Positions 1-14,996 of a stretch of 14,996 bases of DNA are shown piece after piece. Source of the DNA: a virus (taxonomy: Duplodnaviria; Heunggongvirae; Uroviricota; Caudoviricetes); IMG/VR virus record IMGVR_UViG_2713896798_000009; one strand, 5' to 3'. Position 1 is the stretch's first letter, and each line of letters opens with the position of its first letter. Position numbers and translations under genes: made by a program. The notes under the pieces are model-generated. The model was not told the origin of the DNA, did not search any database, and saw only the letters and a list, made by a program, of their open reading frames with translations.

Positions 1-165
1 ATGGCAAAGCCGATCATCACGCTCAATGGCCTAAAAATCGTCATTATGTTGGGAATGCTGGTCATTATTCTCTGCGGTATCCGTTTTGCCGCCGAGATCA
101 TCGTGCCGTTTATTCTCGCATTATTTATTGCTGTTATATATAACTTATTTAACTTAACTAATTGA
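1..165 (+). pseudogene. tqsA: 5' fragment of an AI-2E family transporter gene (TqsA-like). About 45 codons of a membrane-protein N-terminus ([45 protein letters not shown]), then the frame runs into AT-rich non-coding sequence and stops at 163-165.
   Basis: ATG at 1-3; hydrophobic N-terminus that I recall as TqsA/YdgG (recalled, not searched); reading frame ends after 9 unrelated codons; abrupt switch to AT-rich sequence at about 135-200. Confidence 0.45.
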
Positions 166-244
166 TTTAATTAAATAATTTGCACCACAAAAAGTGCCAA
201 AAATCGCAAAATGACTACACCAGTGACTACACCGTTCGGTGCAC

Positions 245-275
245 TGTATGAAACAACGTGGAACAAATAGACACA
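245..275 (-). promoter_or_regulatory. Copy L of a repeated motif (core AACAACGTGGAAC on the plus strand; reads TTGTTCCACGTTGTT on the minus strand) with flanking TTGT-type repeats
   Basis: Exact 13-nt core at 252-264 is identical to 7749-7761 and to the reverse complement of 13699-13711; flanks are also similar. Confidence 0.4.
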
Positions 276-596
276 AGAAATATAAAGGCGGGTCATCTTT
301 CCAGGGGGAAGCGCACCAATTCATGAGGGGCGTTAATGTCGATATGGGGATCCCCACCTACCGGAATTTTTTTCCGGTTAAACGTTAATCAGGCTGGTGG
401 GCTTTACATACCCTTGATCACGGTAATGATGATTCAGGTGCGTACCTTTTCCCCAGTGGGGTAAAAGCTCCAACCGTAACGATGTTCGTTGTGGTTGCCT
501 TGATGGTCTGCGTGGTCATTATGACCATTCAGAATTTGAAGGGTGATGTTTCCGATCTCCTCAAATTGAGGTTGCCGGAAATATCAACGGGTTAGG

Positions 597-889
597 CCAG
601 AGTGCAAATTTGCACTCTGGAACAATTCCAACCAGTAATCAGCGCAATTTTGCGCTTTGCTTTAAGTTCAGCGAGTAACCGAAGGCGGAATTCCGCCCTC
701 GGTACTCACATATGAGAAACGATATTTCTTCCACCGATACCCTTTATTTGGGTATCGCGAGTAAGCCCCAAAATCTGGGTGTTACTCTTACTACCCAAAC
801 TACGGGTATTTTCCGTAATTTCATGGTCGAGTTGCAGATCTGCAACTCACCCACCAGCCAACGCAATTTTGCGCTTTGCTTTAAGTTCA
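597..889. repeat. Cluster of distinct palindromes plus a 28-bp direct repeat, lying between the last packaging gene and the left junction
   Basis: Perfect 24-bp palindrome 597-620 (ccagagtgcaaatttgcactctgg); near-perfect 24-bp palindrome 679-702; hairpin 735-757 (cgataccc/gggtatcg); perfect 20-bp palindrome 829-848 (gagttgcagatctgcaactc); 28-bp direct repeat cgcaattttgcgctttgctttaagttca at 643-670 and 862-889. Confidence 0.6.
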
Positions 890-894
890 ACCAG

Positions 895-1176
895 TTACCG
901 CCGTAACCGCTCCGGCTTCTTCCAGTGGTACGTAATTTTTGCTTTTTCCCTGTACGTCTGCACGCGGCGACGGTAGGCCAGCATTTCAAGAACGCGGATC
1001 CGTATGTTGCGCATATCCACATCATTAAGCTGGATACCATCACGGCGCATCACCTCAGCAACAACTCGCGCATAATTTTCGGCGGTCACGCTGTCCGGCT
1101 GCGTGGCCTGTTCGTCATGCTGCTGGCTGATTCCAGAGACGCGGCGGATTAATCGCAGTATTTCGGCTTCTGTCAT
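895..1176 (-). CDS. hypothetical protein (93 aa), last gene of the packaging operon
   Basis: ATG at 1176 with GAGGT RBS about 7 nt upstream; 13 nt downstream of the terL stop; no family recognised. Confidence 0.5.
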   Translation of the reverse strand: MTEAEILRLIRRVSGISQQHDEQATQPDSVTAENYARVVAEVMRRDGIQLNDVDMRNIRIRVLEMLAYRRRVQTYREKAKITYHWKKPERLRR

Positions 1177-1189
1177 GCTGCTGACCTCA

Positions 1190-13080: not shown

Positions 13081-13225
13081 TGCCTGAAAAACTCCAATTT
13101 TGTTGTTTTCCAGTCTCACTAGGGCGAACGAATCCCCGCCCACGTTCGGGCGCATATTCAATCTTCATGGTTATAGCTCTGTGTTCAGATGATTGATGTG
13201 TGGCGGCTGCGTGCCGCCAGCGTGA

Positions 13226-13414
13226 TTAATGAACTGCCTTGCAGCTATCCTTCCAGGCCAGAACCTCGGATAAAGACCAGCCAACGGAACGACCGCCAAG
13301 TTTACGACGTGATGGGAATTGTCCGGCCTTTTCCATGCGGTAGCGACACGTACGGCTAAGGCCGGTTAGTTTTTCGCATTCTTTTTCACGTATAAACCGA
13401 TCAGTGCTTAACAC
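13226..13414 (-). CDS. alpA: AlpA-family (excisionase-like HTH) transcriptional regulator
   Basis: 62-aa ORF with GTG start and AGGGGG RBS; pattern LTGLSR..RYRMEKAGQFP...LGGRSVGWSLSEVLAW matches the AlpA/Xis-like family; adjacent to int. Confidence 0.8.
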   Translation of the reverse strand: MLSTDRFIREKECEKLTGLSRTCRYRMEKAGQFPSRRKLGGRSVGWSLSEVLAWKDSCKAVH

Positions 13415-13565
13415 TATTGCCCCCTTTCGTTTCTTAAAGAGTCATCAGGTGTCTTATTGTGTCGTATTGTTCCCGCTAGAGTGATGAATGGCAAATGTTG
13501 GTGGCGCATGGTTTACAGAAAGAGGAATAATCAGGATAAAATCATTTAAATTCATGTTAATACAA

Positions 13566-13595
13566 AGGCATAAAATCTCGTTTTATGCCTTTTTT
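13566..13595. terminator. strong hairpin with flanking T/A runs between int and alpA, possible bidirectional terminator
   Basis: 10-bp stem aggcataaaa/ttttatgcct with 5-nt loop; followed by TTTTT on the plus strand and preceded by an A-run (U-run on the minus strand). Confidence 0.5.
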
Positions 13596-13686
13596 CTCAC
13601 GCTTTAAAGCGTGATTCGCTAATGTATAAAAAACCAGTAATATAATAAAAATCAGCGACTTATAAATCTGTATGCTTTTTCGCCTC

Positions 13687-13738
13687 TTGTTCGTGATTGT
13701 TCCACGTTGTTGCACATTGTTTCACGTTGTATCTGTTC
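13687..13738 (+). repeat. Copy R of the repeated motif: phased array of five to six TTGTT(N)CACG-like 10-bp direct repeats just 3' of int
   Basis: TTGTT recurs at 13687, 13697, 13706, 13717, 13727 and TGTTC at 13734, roughly every 10 bp; includes the 13-nt core at 13699-13711; followed by the 16-bp perfect palindrome cagtatgcgcatactg at 13747-13762. Confidence 0.5.
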
Positions 13739-13778
13739 GCATATCCAGTATGCGCATACTGAAAAAACCCGAAAAAAA

Positions 13779-14996
13779 TTATTTTCTTCTGGCTACGGGT
13801 AGCGTGGTTACGTTTTCATGTGCTCCCGCCAGTATCCCTAACCGCTCCGTCCACATATCCAGCGCATCACGTTTCGCATCCAGATAACGGGAATGGTTAT
13901 AGACTCGTTGCATCCCTGGCATCTGATGACCTGTAAGCTGCTCCACGACGTGAGGATCCGCGCCTAAATCGTTCAGCATCGTTGTAAAGGTGCGCCGGAT
14001 GTCATGCAGTGACCATTGAGGGTGTTTTAGCCTCCTGTGCGCTAATCTGCCGTACTGCGATACGCTGGCCTCCTGTTTCACTTCCCCCAGCAATAAGCCC
14101 GTGTGCCTGTTCTGCTCCACCAGCTTCATGACAAACGGCAGGATCGCTTCCGGTATGGGCCGGAATATTGCGACCTTCGTTTTGCTGTGCTCCTTCGGAA
14201 CGGTCCATAGCATTTCCGTAAAATCCCACTCCCCGATCTCCGATAACCTCAGTTCTACCGTTCTGGCACCGAAGACAATCAGGAGGCGGATTAACGCGAC
14301 GTAGTAAGGGGAAAATATTTTTTTATCCAGTGCCTGCAATAACTCGCCAAGTTCTTTGGTGCTTAAGACACGCTCGCTTATATCCGGTTTTTTCCCAACG
14401 TCCGCAACGTTCAGATCGTCCAGAACGTTGCTGATTGCATAGCGCCGCCTACGGCAGAACTTAAGCGCCTGTTTGCACGCCTGTAGCACGAATCCGGCAG
14501 TAACAGGCGTTCGCTTTGCCACCTGGTCAAAACAAGCCAGCCAGTGCCGTAGCTCGCATTTATCCAGCGGCATAGCACCAATGTGCTGTATTACGTGATT
14601 ATTAAGTCGCCTTTTCAGGGCGATATAATCCACGCGGTTTTCCTTTACGTAAGACTCAAGCCAGTAGGTAAGCGCATCGCCAACCGTTACGGGCTTTAAC
14701 GCTTCCTGTACGGTGTAATTCATCTCATGACGTGGATTTTTCCCCTCAGCCAGCCATGCGCGACACTGTGCGGCTTTTTCCCTGGCTGCTTTCAGGCTCA
14801 GATCAGGATAACTTCCCAGCTTAATGCGTTCGGGTCGTGTCTCCCTTCCCGTTCCGGCCCTGTATGTGAAATACCATGTCAATTTCCCTGATGTTAAATA
14901 TTTCACGCTCAGGTTTCCGCCATCACTATAAAACGTGTTTTTCTCAGCTGGCTTACCATGAAGTTTCCTTAGCAATGTATCGCTCAGTTTGTTCAT
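13779..14996 (-). CDS. int: tyrosine site-specific integrase (P4-type, with N-terminal arm-binding domain)
   Basis: 405-aa ORF; N-terminus MNKLSDTLLRKLHGKPAEKNTFYSDGGNLSVKY...; C-terminal catalytic region with HDIRRTF...GH...RVYNHSRYL consistent with the conserved His and Tyr of tyrosine recombinases; ATG is the last codon of the window. Confidence 0.95.
   Translation of the reverse strand: MNKLSDTLLRKLHGKPAEKNTFYSDGGNLSVKYLTSGKLTWYFTYRAGTGRETRPERIKLGSYPDLSLKAAREKAAQCRAWLAEGKNPRHEMNYTVQEALKPVTVGDALTYWLESYVKENRVDYIALKRRLNNHVIQHIGAMPLDKCELRHWLACFDQVAKRTPVTAGFVLQACKQALKFCRRRRYAISNVLDDLNVADVGKKPDISERVLSTKELGELLQALDKKIFSPYYVALIRLLIVFGARTVELRLSEIGEWDFTEMLWTVPKEHSKTKVAIFRPIPEAILPFVMKLVEQNRHTGLLLGEVKQEASVSQYGRLAHRRLKHPQWSLHDIRRTFTTMLNDLGADPHVVEQLTGHQMPGMQRVYNHSRYLDAKRDALDMWTERLGILAGAHENVTTLPVARRK

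Follow-up and report, generated by a model that had tools for sequence, protein, structure and literature searches.

The window, that is, the whole stretch of 14,996 nucleotides analysed here, holds nearly all of an island of about 15.06 kb that splits the host gene tqsA (AI-2 exporter). Gene assignments were made with Pfam and NCBIfam profiles, and small ORFs were also compared with PHROGs. As comparison sequence for the capsid-forming PICI (cf-PICI) EcCIEDL933, the prototype from E. coli O157:H7 EDL933, we used the equivalent "prophage Sp7" of Sakai (NC_002695.2, 1594711-1610171). The right att junction lies outside the window and was read from two 99%-identical islands, L001 (99.4%) and FORC_028 (99.1%). 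The features are as follows.

1-137, plus: 5' fragment of tqsA, host flank outside the island; identity to K-12 tqsA up to 137, RefSeq pseudogene fragment in L001 and FORC_028
129-137, no strand: att core TGCTGTTAT of the left junction, also in the empty K-12 tqsA and at the L001 right junction
138-894, no strand: non-coding island end without a credible ORF
211-233, plus: tandem arm-type repeat (A/G)TGACTACACC, two copies (repeat comparison)
895-1176, minus: 93-aa protein, last packaging-operon gene, homologue of ECs_1599 (89%; phrog_1561, unknown function)
1190-2851, minus: large terminase TerL, ATPase and nuclease (Pfam TerL_ATPase, TerL_nuclease; 98.2% to ECs_1598)
2835-3191, minus: small terminase TerS, P27 family (Pfam Terminase_4, TIGR01558; 100% to ECs_1597)
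3215-3302, minus: non-coding block upstream of terS, GGGGTGGGGG ... CCTCCCCAAATTTTTATGCACGG..TTTTTT (cross-genus conservation)
3315-3497, minus: gene of 60 aa in the HNH-TerS interval, with an annotation in both L001 and FORC_028 (phrog_3173; 93% to an unannotated Sp7 ORF)
3481-3921, minus: HNH endonuclease (Pfam HNH; 87.7% to ECs_1595)
3921-4217, minus: gp6-like head-tail adaptor/connector (Pfam Phage_connect_1, TIGR01560; 99% to ECs_1594)
4214-4552, minus: head closure (head completion) protein (Pfam Phage_HCP, TIGR01563; 96% to ECs_1593, 48% to the HK97 gp7 region)
4549-5760, minus: portal, HK97 type (Pfam Phage_portal 3e-90, TIGR01537; 98.5% to Sp7)
5762-6319, minus: prohead serine protease, S78, HK97 family (Pfam Peptidase_S78, TIGR01543; 96.8% to ECs_1591)
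6375-7532, minus: major capsid protein, HK97 type, with N-terminal scaffolding (delta) domain, residues 1-92 (Pfam Phage_capsid)
7825-8049, minus: 74-aa gene upstream of the capsid gene, conserved in related islands (98.6% to ECs_1589)
8175-8447, minus: accessory PerC-family regulator, PchE homologue (Pfam PerC 3.6e-43; 91% to Sakai pchE)
8458-8868, minus: SSB (Pfam SSB; 92% to ECs_1587)
8878-9425, minus: two small genes, 8878-9183 (101 aa) and 9180-9425 (phrog_27268 and phrog_1231, both of unknown function)
9476-9700, no strand: iteron cluster, ten copies of GGTGAACAGT in both orientations (motif count)
9713-11530, minus: primase-helicase, D5/P4 type (D5_N, DUF5906, Pox_D5; P4-family primase C-terminal region)
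11527-11826, minus: DUF4222 gene (family profile)
11833-12153, minus: 106-aa gene (ORF)
12146-12349, minus: Icd-like gene (profile or RefSeq annotation)
12447-12482, plus: AGGTGTGGCCCAC, present twice without mismatch ahead of the plus-strand gene (repeat search)
12549-12728, plus: YlcI/YnfO-type 59-aa protein, the sole plus-strand gene (phrog_949; RefSeq name)
12722-13171, minus: truncated variable gene downstream of alpA, of which the N-terminal part remains; homologue of ECs_1576, with Sp7 homology beginning at 12722
13226-13414, minus: AlpA-type regulator (Pfam Phage_AlpA 1.2e-16; 96.8% to the Sp7 alpA ORF)
13779-14996, minus: tyrosine integrase with arm-binding domain (Pfam Arm-DNA-bind_3, Phage_integrase; 90.6% to ECs_1574)

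The window follows K-12 tqsA up to the core at 129-137 and diverges beyond it. In the L001 and FORC_028 islands a second TGCTGTTAT stands about 190 bp past the window end and is followed by the remaining part of tqsA; in L001 the copies lie at 10129 and 25187, and their spacing of 15,058 bp is the island total. The initial annotation had placed the element at 136-14996, next to a disrupted host gene. Alignment with K-12 identifies that gene as tqsA, and the start was accurate to a few bases, but the end was set too early by about 190 bp, as L001 and FORC_028 indicate. The int start codon given by RefSeq is 12 nt beyond the window end, and in both islands only 187 bp, holding one annotated 60-aa hypothetical ORF, follow int before host genes are reached. 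Three palindromes (597-620, 684-697, 829-848) and a direct repeat of 53 nt (629-681 and 848-900) mark the non-coding end (138-894), for which no PHROG or Rfam match was obtained; over positions 161-530 this end shares 87% identity with its counterpart in Sp7. The (A/G)TGACTACACC repeat recurs in the same orientation adjoining int, just outside the window, and these repeats are probably integrase arm-binding sites. Their Sp7 equivalents are TT(A/G)ACTACACC repeats on both arms.

The Pfam Phage_capsid match covers residues 115-394 of the longer, 400-aa capsid ORF. At 381 of 385 residues the protein is identical to PDB entry 9GYI, which its depositors state to be the solved T=4 capsid of EcCIEDL933. 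The Sp7 capsid protein must be that of 9GYI, because the window differs from 9GYI and from Sp7 by an identical set of four residues. The motif SxGxxAD marks the maturation cleavage of both EcCIEDL933 and HK97 (bioRxiv 10.1101/2025.02.11.637232); in the window 92 N-terminal residues precede the retained motif S93TGVPAD (S93-T-G-V-P-A-D), which upholds the scaffolding domain proposed earlier. The 74-aa protein encoded upstream of the capsid gene has a 96% identical counterpart in Shigella and more distant ones (31-41% identity) in the islands of Rosenbergiella, Citrobacter and Gilliamella. The packaging genes contain no internal stops, keep equal lengths between the compared copies and have a pooled pN/pS of 0.095, and thus are maintained and not decaying.

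HNH endonucleases serve as packaging cofactors for HK97-type terminases. Upstream of terS, the block at 3215-3302 is conserved between islands of E. coli, Citrobacter, Erwinia and Gilliamella in which the proteins on either side share only 49-81% identity, which makes it a candidate cos or packaging-initiation site. Its position between HNH and TerS presumably agrees with the circularised HK97 map. TerS sits at the left end of HK97 (NC_002167), and the block has no similarity to that left (cos) end. Counting genes from capsid gene 1786 of EcCIEDL933, the 60-aa gene at 3315-3497 appears to occupy the position of gene 1792, mutation of which causes a severe drop in transfer (bioRxiv 10.1101/2022.09.08.507074).

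Iterons next to the primase gene had been claimed by the initial annotation and are real: with up to one mismatch to GGTGAACAGT allowed, 10 copies fall within 9476-9700, 0.71 being expected window-wide, and 11 matches were reached in 0 of 200 shuffles. The cluster, directly downstream of the primase gene, is a putative origin of replication. The primase-helicase matches TIGR01613 (P4-family primase C-terminal domain) with 95.6 bits, below the cut-off of 108.7, and its likeness to the Sp7 primase is confined to the first ~140 aa. The module comprising origin, primase, DUF4222 and 106-aa gene (9426-12153) is 98.2% DNA-identical to a classical PICI, that of TUM13867 (L004). Intact ORFs and iterons suggest that the island is competent to replicate, by a module that differs from that of the prototype.

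The ECs_1576 homologue at 12722-13171, for which PHROGs and profile searches gave no family match, is cut at a recombination breakpoint and is a RefSeq pseudogene in L001. The AGGTGTGGCCCAC pair may possibly represent operators; at this location L001 carries another repeat, in three copies, and its allele of the YlcI/YnfO-type gene is divergent. The small-regulator cassette has been swapped.

No tail, lysis or phage DNA polymerase gene was found among the window ORFs with Pfam, NCBIfam and PHROGs. The other annotated ORFs, and 10 candidate ORFs taken mostly from the gaps, matched only PHROGs of unknown function or regulators, or nothing, and no defence family matched in the small or gap ORFs. 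Nor are there tail or lysis genes between the window end and the second half of tqsA in L001 and FORC_028. The absence reported by the initial annotation therefore stands on both the ORF profiles and the host-gene flanks. That annotation had named two findings that would tell against a satellite. Between the two att junctions there is no tail or lysis gene, and the head genes, with intact ORFs and the pN/pS value given above, are not non-functional remnants. Its listed genes were all recovered on the minus strand by profile searches, but it missed those at 3315-3497, 8175-8447 (PerC), 12146-12349 (Icd-like), 12549-12728 (YlcI/YnfO-type) and 12722-13171 (truncated).

The core set is intact: int, alpA, primase-helicase, HK97-type capsid protein, prohead protease, portal, adaptor, head closure, HNH, TerS and TerL. 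The cfPICI model of SatelliteFinder has 11 core components and forbids tail and holin (PMC10085698); all 11 are present in the island, and both forbidden functions are absent. Together with the tqsA boundaries, the 88-100% identity of nine packaging proteins to those of Sakai Sp7 and the 9GYI match, this bears out the earlier description as a capsid-forming phage satellite. We consider it very probable, from its sequence, that the window contains a cf-PICI of the EcCIEDL933 lineage inserted in E. coli tqsA. The element is already known, being a near-copy of the cf-PICI type member EcCIEDL933, and the family was published in 2022-23.

Could this copy be a cf-PICI by descent that is now immobile, domesticated or decaying and kept by vertical inheritance alone? 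In favour, a recombination breakpoint truncates the gene downstream of alpA, ~91 bp spanning the terS start are deleted in a Shigella flexneri copy, and a Rosenbergiella copy lacks the stretch from mid-portal to TerL. The tqsA junction is present in 243 of 5426 genomes, many from related STEC serogroups, a distribution that vertical descent could explain. However, the core genes are all full length and stop-free, the packaging pN/pS is low, the iterons, att core, arm repeats and terS-upstream block are all intact, and the truncated gene lies in a region that varies among functional islands (bioRxiv 10.1101/2025.02.11.637232). We regard immobility as unlikely.

A cryptic prophage, that is, the remnant of an HK97-like temperate phage after deletion of tail, lysis and immunity genes, is suggested by the HK97 families of the head genes and by the Sakai record, which names the equivalent element "prophage Sp7; untypable". 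Yet the compact gene set and its order recur across genera at 50-80% protein identity, always tail-less, a pattern not expected from independent deletions. The order is unlike that of HK97, identity to HK97 proteins is 26-48%, and the share of the window covered by any one phage record does not exceed 20%. The left half is of PICI type (int, alpA, P4-type primase, iterons), and its replication module shares 98% identity with that of a classical PICI; purifying selection acts on the genes; and EcCIEDL933 itself is experimentally a satellite (bioRxiv 10.1101/2022.09.08.507074). This origin is thus very unlikely. A P4-like satellite that redirects helper capsid proteins instead of making its own would share the Arm-DNA-bind_3 integrase, AlpA-type regulator, Icd-like gene and weak sub-threshold TIGR01613 match. 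Such a reading is contradicted by the gene content, namely a full complement of capsid, portal, protease and terminase genes, absent from P4-like elements, by the absence of Psu, Sid and Delta families from all island ORFs, and by a capsid protein that is the one of the solved cf-PICI capsid; we give it almost no credence.

For a cf-PICI of the EcCIEDL933 lineage, a life cycle may be proposed in which all but the final integration has been shown in the literature for EcCIEDL933 and would apply by extension to the tqsA island, including its induction, helper, capsid size and transfer. An HK97-like siphovirus helper prophage (HK106 or HK446 for the prototype) would activate alpA; Int would excise the island at the TGCTGTTAT core, and replication would start from the GGTGAACAGT iteron origin with the island's own primase-helicase and SSB. 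With the packaging operon switched on, the scaffolding domain would drive capsid assembly around the portal into a T=4 procapsid of ~47 nm, from which the S78 protease would remove residues 1-92. TerS, TerL and HNH would cut island concatemers at cos, probably the conserved block upstream of terS, and package ~15-kb monomers, which fit no head but the small one. Adaptor and head-closure proteins would complete the head, which would join helper tails, or tails of unrelated phages after release of tail-less capsids; for tails and lysis the island presumably depends on its helper. In a new cell Int would then insert the island into tqsA, splitting the gene.

HK97 (NC_002167) shares with the island the families of capsid, protease, portal, head closure, adaptor and TerL and an HNH-dependent terminase. 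However, identities are low (TerL 27%, portal 26%, head closure 48%), tblastn at 1e-3 gave no capsid match, the island order is capsid, protease, portal, closure, adaptor, HNH, TerS, TerL, and the island has no tail, lysis, immunity or recombination genes. The capsids of EcCIEDL933 and HK97 have the fold and maturation cleavage motif in common but differ in being T=4 and T=7, respectively (bioRxiv 10.1101/2025.02.11.637232).

P4, too, is a satellite that integrates, and it resembles the island in its AlpA-type regulator, its Icd-like gene and an arm-domain tyrosine integrase, the island's integrase having been called P4-type by the initial annotation; the P4-family primase domain is matched weakly, below cut-off. 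Capsid, portal, protease and terminase genes are lacking in P4; the P2 capsid is resized by Sid and Psu. Classical E. coli PICIs (EcCICFT073 type; TUM13867, L004) resemble the island in int, AlpA-type/HTH regulator, Icd-like gene, DUF4222, primase and SSB. They carry only capsid-remodelling genes and TerS and take capsid, portal and TerL from the helper, whereas the tqsA island encodes its own. The PICI model of SatelliteFinder forbids portal, adaptor and connector components (PMC10085698).

Other enterobacterial cf-PICIs (EcCIGN02175, KpCIDSM30104; 969 cfPICI by SatelliteFinder), compared by description, likewise have the 11 core components and no tail or holin. Citrobacter, Erwinia and Gilliamella islands show the same tail-less synteny, with 50-80% protein identity in the packaging module; after TerL, the Citrobacter and Gilliamella ORFs have no tail-family match and host-like genes are reached, in Citrobacter those for uracil-DNA glycosylase and sigma-70. 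Variable regions of cf-PICIs are the packaging-operon flanks, the region downstream of alpA and the adaptor/connector genes (bioRxiv 10.1101/2025.02.11.637232), and the tqsA island varies at such places.

In EcCIEDL933 the helper induces through alpA, the small capsids are PICI-encoded, mutation of any packaging gene abolishes transfer, and helper tail genes are required (bioRxiv 10.1101/2022.09.08.507074); its capsid is T=4 and cleaved at residue 93 (bioRxiv 10.1101/2025.02.11.637232). The tqsA island and Sp7 are alike in architecture and size (15.06 and 15.46 kb) and share a contiguous 8-kb block (887-8879) of 95.5% DNA identity. Packaging-protein identities are 100% for TerS, 99% for adaptor and capsid, 98.5% for portal, 98% for TerL, 97% for protease, 96% for head closure, 93% for the small HNH-TerS gene and 88% for HNH; outside packaging they are 97% for AlpA, 92% for SSB and 91% for PerC/PchE and Int. 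The two differ in att site, which is tqsA with core TGCTGTTAT here and lies between phoQ and roxA with core AAATATGTCC in Sp7; of the 38 integrase substitutions, 19 are located in the arm-binding domain (first 70 residues), and the arm repeats are also distinct. The replication module has been exchanged, with a primase that is related to that of Sp7 over its first ~140 aa only; the tqsA island has in addition the 101-aa gene (8878-9183) and the plus-strand YlcI/YnfO-type cassette, and its alpA-downstream gene is truncated.

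The island has every defining feature of a capsid-forming phage-inducible chromosomal island (cf-PICI; Alqurainy et al.) that can be tested from sequence, and on that basis it is assigned to this class. All 11 core components of the SatelliteFinder cfPICI model (PMC10085698) were found in it, and the components that the model forbids were absent. The initial annotation, made by a model from the raw sequence, had read the element as a capsid-forming satellite. This reading is borne out by the gene content, by boundaries fixed in the host gene tqsA, and by kinship with Sp7 and EcCIEDL933, and the accompanying list of parts, iteron origin included, proved correct in Pfam and NCBIfam profile searches and in a count of the iterons. 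A capsid-forming satellite can evidently be recognised by a reader without tools.

The island was compared with Sp7 of E. coli O157:H7 Sakai, an element of 15,461 bp that has phoQ on one side and roxA on the other. The segment from portal to capsid is 97.2% identical to Sp7 at the DNA level; positions 887-8879 align to it at 95.5% and both ends at 87-90%, which leaves only about 9.4-12.7 kb with weak similarity or none. With PDB entry 9GYI, which is the capsid of the cf-PICI EcCIEDL933 according to the depositing paper, the capsid protein agrees at 381 of 385 residues; at the other four the window differs from Sp7 in the same way, and Sp7 is thus the Sakai copy of EcCIEDL933.

Genes of the island (families from Pfam and NCBIfam; percentages are protein identity to Sp7, where given)
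1190-2851, minus: TerL, 98%
2835-3191, minus: TerS of the P27 family, 100%
3315-3497, minus: 60-aa gene between HNH and TerS (by position), 93%
3481-3921, minus: HNH, 88%
3921-4217, minus: gp6-like adaptor (Phage_connect_1), 99%
4214-4552, minus: head closure protein (Phage_HCP), 96%
4549-5760, minus: HK97-type portal, 98.5%
5762-6319, minus: HK97-family prohead protease, 97%
6375-7532, minus: HK97-type major capsid protein, 99%
8175-8447, minus: PerC-family regulator, 91%
8458-8868, minus: SSB, 92%
9713-11530, minus: D5/P4-type primase-helicase
11527-11826, minus: DUF4222 protein
12146-12349, minus: Icd-like protein
13226-13414, minus: AlpA (Pfam Phage_AlpA, 1.2e-16), 96.8% to the Sp7 alpA ORF
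13779-14996, minus: tyrosine integrase with arm-binding domain, 91%

Almost every gene from the att core to the window end lies on the minus strand. The integrase stands at one end of the element with AlpA adjoining it, and the island has its own capsid, protease and portal, both head-tail joining proteins required of a cf-PICI, and the HNH, TerS and TerL genes. The PerC-family protein is 91% identical to Sakai PchE, and its gene start differs between RefSeq (90 aa) and the 130-aa ORF. Proteins of the PerC/Pch type regulate the LEE virulence island. A minus-strand hairpin with a T-run (CAGCCGGAG..CCGGCTTTTT) is present twice, at 7793-7819 and 8147-8173, directly after a 74-aa gene and after the PerC gene; the two copies are 93% identical and probably act as terminators, setting the accessory genes apart from the packaging operon.

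The boundaries of the element are set by tqsA, which encodes an AI-2 exporter. The first 137 bases of the window are the start of this gene, identical to K-12, with the att core TGCTGTTAT at 129-137 and divergence from tqsA beyond the core. The right junction lies past the window end and is known only from near-identical relatives, so two chromosomes were used to fix the boundaries: that of strain SCPM-O-B-9504 (region L001; 99.4% identical over 98% of the window) and that of FORC_028 (99.1%). In both, beyond int, there follow 187 bp, with one annotated 60-aa hypothetical ORF, and then a second TGCTGTTAT and the remainder of tqsA; the two halves of the gene flank the island, each annotated as a pseudogene fragment, with mdtJI outside on one side and pntBA on the other. 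In L001 the distance from core to core is 15,058 bp, a size that fits a small capsid (about 15 kb). The gene is split at about codon 46 (remainder, L001 25188-26093), and a stop codon between the island-borne ORF and this remainder means that no fusion protein is expected; precise excision would restore tqsA. Integration into a tRNA gene is excluded, as a tRNA scan of the window was negative. Of 5426 complete E. coli genomes, 243 (4.5%) have the left junction, and many of these carriers are among the Shiga-toxin-associated serogroups O26, O103 and O111. A full-text search gave no paper joining 'tqsA' with 'PICI', the six published E. coli cf-PICI attB sites lying outside the comparison.

Within these boundaries nothing resembling a tail gene, a holin, an endolysin or a DNA polymerase was found, as the initial annotation had claimed; this holds in PHROGs and Pfam searches and in both near-identical islands, whose flanks are host genes. 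The small annotated ORFs matched only PHROGs of unknown function or regulators, and no PHROG match was obtained for ten further candidates (744-1043, 8090-8218, 13557-13715 and seven ORFs within the 138-894 gap), so that no holin is hidden among them. PADLOC recognised no known defence gene among ten accessory or small proteins. In the Sakai record the HNH homologue ECs_1595 (9933-10373 of the Sakai region, L003) is named 'holin protein', a label that is unsupported because the protein has a Pfam HNH match and no hydrophobic stretch. The same record names the island 'prophage Sp7; untypable' and leaves alpA and the small gene between HNH and TerS unannotated. Such 'prophage' and 'holin' labels in genome records could mislead automated searches for lysis genes.

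The packaging module is intact. The initial annotation had allowed that the head genes might be non-functional remnants; instead, all nine packaging genes are equal in length to their Sp7 counterparts and free of internal stops, and the 183 synonymous and 60 non-synonymous differences between them give a pooled pN/pS of 0.095, indicating purifying selection and not decay. The capsid cleavage motif S93-T-G-V-P-A-D is retained. The 60-aa gene at 3315-3497 would, counting from the capsid gene 1786, be the positional equivalent of EcCIEDL933 gene 1792.

The experimental work on EcCIEDL933, an element of 15.4-15.5 kb, has shown that it is induced by HK106 and HK446, that this induction requires alpA, and that its small capsids (T=4, 47.5 nm) are built of island proteins, with the scaffolding domain cleaved before residue 93 (bioRxiv 10.1101/2022.09.08.507074; 10.1101/2025.02.11.637232). 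Its transfer is kept with helper capsid mutants, lost with helper tail mutants, and abolished by mutation of any packaging gene except the hypothetical gene 1792, where the reduction is severe; cf-PICIs release tail-less capsids that are able to join the tails of other phages (same two reports). Extrapolating from this prototype across 88-100% protein identity, we infer that the present island is likewise helper-induced, forms small capsids and depends on helper tails. The importance of such elements is in gene transfer: with heads of their own and any phage tails at hand, they carry genes from strain to strain and even across genera.

The replication module is distributed more widely than the window as a whole. 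The primase carries D5_N, DUF5906 and Pox_D5 domains and resembles that of Sp7 only over its first ~140 residues. Directly downstream, in the gap that separates its stop codon from the following gene, a stretch of 225 bp has ten copies of GGTGAACAGT, some in each orientation, against an expectation of 0.71 matches in the whole window. The replication module (origin, primase, DUF4222 gene and a 106-aa gene) was found at 80% coverage or more in 427 genomes, compared with 69 for the whole window, and a 98.2% identical module is present in strain TUM13867 in a classical-type PICI of ~11 kb without portal, protease or TerL. A left half common to cf-PICIs and classical PICIs is a described property of cf-PICIs. 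The TUM13867 element (about 5975-17010 of region L004, NZ_AP025657.1 3484733-3509460) interrupts a lambdoid prophage in its major capsid gene, the pseudogene halves of which are at L004 5186-5974 and 17011-17256; among its own genes are one with a TIR domain and one for abortive infection.

The gene downstream of alpA is truncated, with a breakpoint at 12722, at a site known to be variable in cf-PICIs (bioRxiv 10.1101/2025.02.11.637232). The cassette at 12437-12696, comprising a plus-strand YlcI/YnfO-type gene and its upstream region, is a divergent allele of L001 22437-22696, in islands whose remaining sequence agrees at 99.9%; identity is 71% (362/510) over a 500-nt segment around it and lower in the core. 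The upstream repeats differ with the allele, two copies of AGGTGTGGCCCAC in the window and three AGGTGTTGAACAC-like copies in L001. By these differences the cassette looks like a swap of a regulator together with its operator. For the 59-aa YlcI/YnfO-type protein, which has no relative in the PDB, AlphaFold2 without an alignment gave three helices with a pLDDT of 80 and a pTM of 0.43, for which a DNA-binding fold is no more than a possibility. A 340-aa minus-strand ORF at 12146-13168, with no Pfam family, was rejected as a gene: it starts in the truncated gene beside alpA, crosses the YlcI-type gene in antisense and ends within the Icd-like gene, all in one frame, and is probably an accidental read-through created by recombination.

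The head module recurs well beyond E. coli. The order small conserved gene, capsid, protease, portal, head closure, adaptor, HNH, TerS, TerL is found in Shigella flexneri (98% capsid identity) and, with proteins 50-80% identical, in C. amalonaticus (Citrobacter), E. psidii (Erwinia) and one strain of Gilliamella. The ORFs that follow TerL in the Citrobacter and Gilliamella islands have no match to a tail family and reach host genes (uracil-DNA glycosylase and sigma-70) in the former and host-like genes (DUF535 and enoyl-ACP reductase) in the latter. A cryptic remnant of an HK97-like prophage is a weak alternative, which three observations contradict: the tail-less layout is conserved across genera, the packaging genes are under purifying selection, and the left half is of PICI type. 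An autonomous HK97-like phage is likewise a poor description, as the 15 kb hold no tail module, lysis cassette or immunity repressor. The case for a P4-like satellite is also weak, since satellites of that kind lack capsid genes of their own whereas a full head module is present here, and since none of the ORFs matched the Psu, Sid or Delta families for capsid size and transactivation. Classical PICIs of the EcCICFT073 or SaPI type depend on capsid proteins of the helper and are without portal, adaptor, connector and TerL; the island has portal, adaptor, head closure and TerL. The only rival that we give some weight accepts the element as a cf-PICI and holds that this particular copy is no longer mobilisable. 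Two relatives are visibly defective, a ~91-bp deletion in the S. flexneri copy (region L005, about 14263-14269) having removed half of a conserved non-coding block and the start of terS, and the Rosenbergiella copy (region L006, about 6678) being joined directly from mid-portal to the end of TerL; the window copy is without damage of this kind.

The non-coding block just mentioned (~3215-3302, minus strand) lies upstream of terS and just downstream of the 60-aa gene, and is strikingly conserved. Its layout of GGGGTGGGGG, a C-rich tract, CAAATTTTTATGCACGG and a T-run is kept in the E. coli, Citrobacter, Erwinia and Gilliamella islands, in which the neighbouring proteins are only 49-81% identical, so that across the cf-PICIs of four genera it is conserved far better than the flanking coding sequence. 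In circularised HK97-type genomes cos lies between HNH and TerS. Because the block occupies this position, we propose it, from position and conservation, as a candidate cos or packaging-initiation site, the alternative being a conserved promoter. The left (cos) end of HK97 shares with the window only chance 7-10-mers, and cos is therefore not assignable by homology to HK97. The other long non-coding stretch, 757 bp at 138-894, is without a credible gene. Perfect palindromes of 24, 20 and 14 nt lie at 597-620, 829-848 and 684-697 respectively, a direct repeat of 53 nt lies at 629-681 and 848-900, and conservation with Sp7 is confined to 161-530. Counts in a promoter and terminator scan of 130-1200 were no higher than in shuffles. 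Rfam gave nothing credible, either for the whole window at the gathering threshold or for 130-900 at E<=1; a match to tfoR was rejected at 16.5 bits against a gathering score of 70. In practical terms the analysis yields no more than a clean annotation of a tqsA-inserted cf-PICI, a cos candidate open to experiment and the caution over record labels given above.

The attachment site differs from that of Sp7. The attP-derived flanks of the island and of Sp7 are homologous right up to the core, which is TGCTGTTAT inside tqsA in the former and AAATATGTCC in the latter. The integrases (13779-14996 and L003 20549-21766) are 90.6% identical, and 19 of their 38 substitutions fall within the first 70 residues, the arm-binding domain; the tandem arm repeats at 211-233 read (A/G)TGACTACACC, those of Sp7 TT(A/G)ACTACACC. 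It seems improbable to us that the lineage amounts to anything beyond the prototype at a different attachment site. If it did, the arm-binding domain, arm repeats and att core, which appear to have changed in concert, would have redirected the island into the tqsA coding sequence, and quorum-signal export would be turned off by integration and on again by helper-induced excision, in the manner of 'active lysogeny'; the regulator-operator cassette would be swappable, and could set the inducing helper or give immunity between islands.

Among phages the relationship is distant. HK97 proteins are only 26-48% identical to the head proteins of the island, and although the head genes are on one strand in both, the HK97 order (TerS, TerL, portal, protease, capsid, adaptor, closure; HK97 1-6000) is roughly the reverse of that read on the transcribed strand of the window (capsid, protease, portal, closure, adaptor, HNH, TerS, TerL). 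Coverage of the window by any record in the phage collection does not exceed 20%. The top match is vB_KppS-Ant, a 16.5-kb 'induced prophage' record that covers only 20% at 77% identity (primase, portal and capsid); to judge by its small size, it may be a satellite recorded under the name of a phage. The island is a close relative of the cf-PICI type member, and as such belongs to a known kind of element; it illustrates the modular exchange usual in cf-PICIs, combining the same head with another integration site and another replicon.
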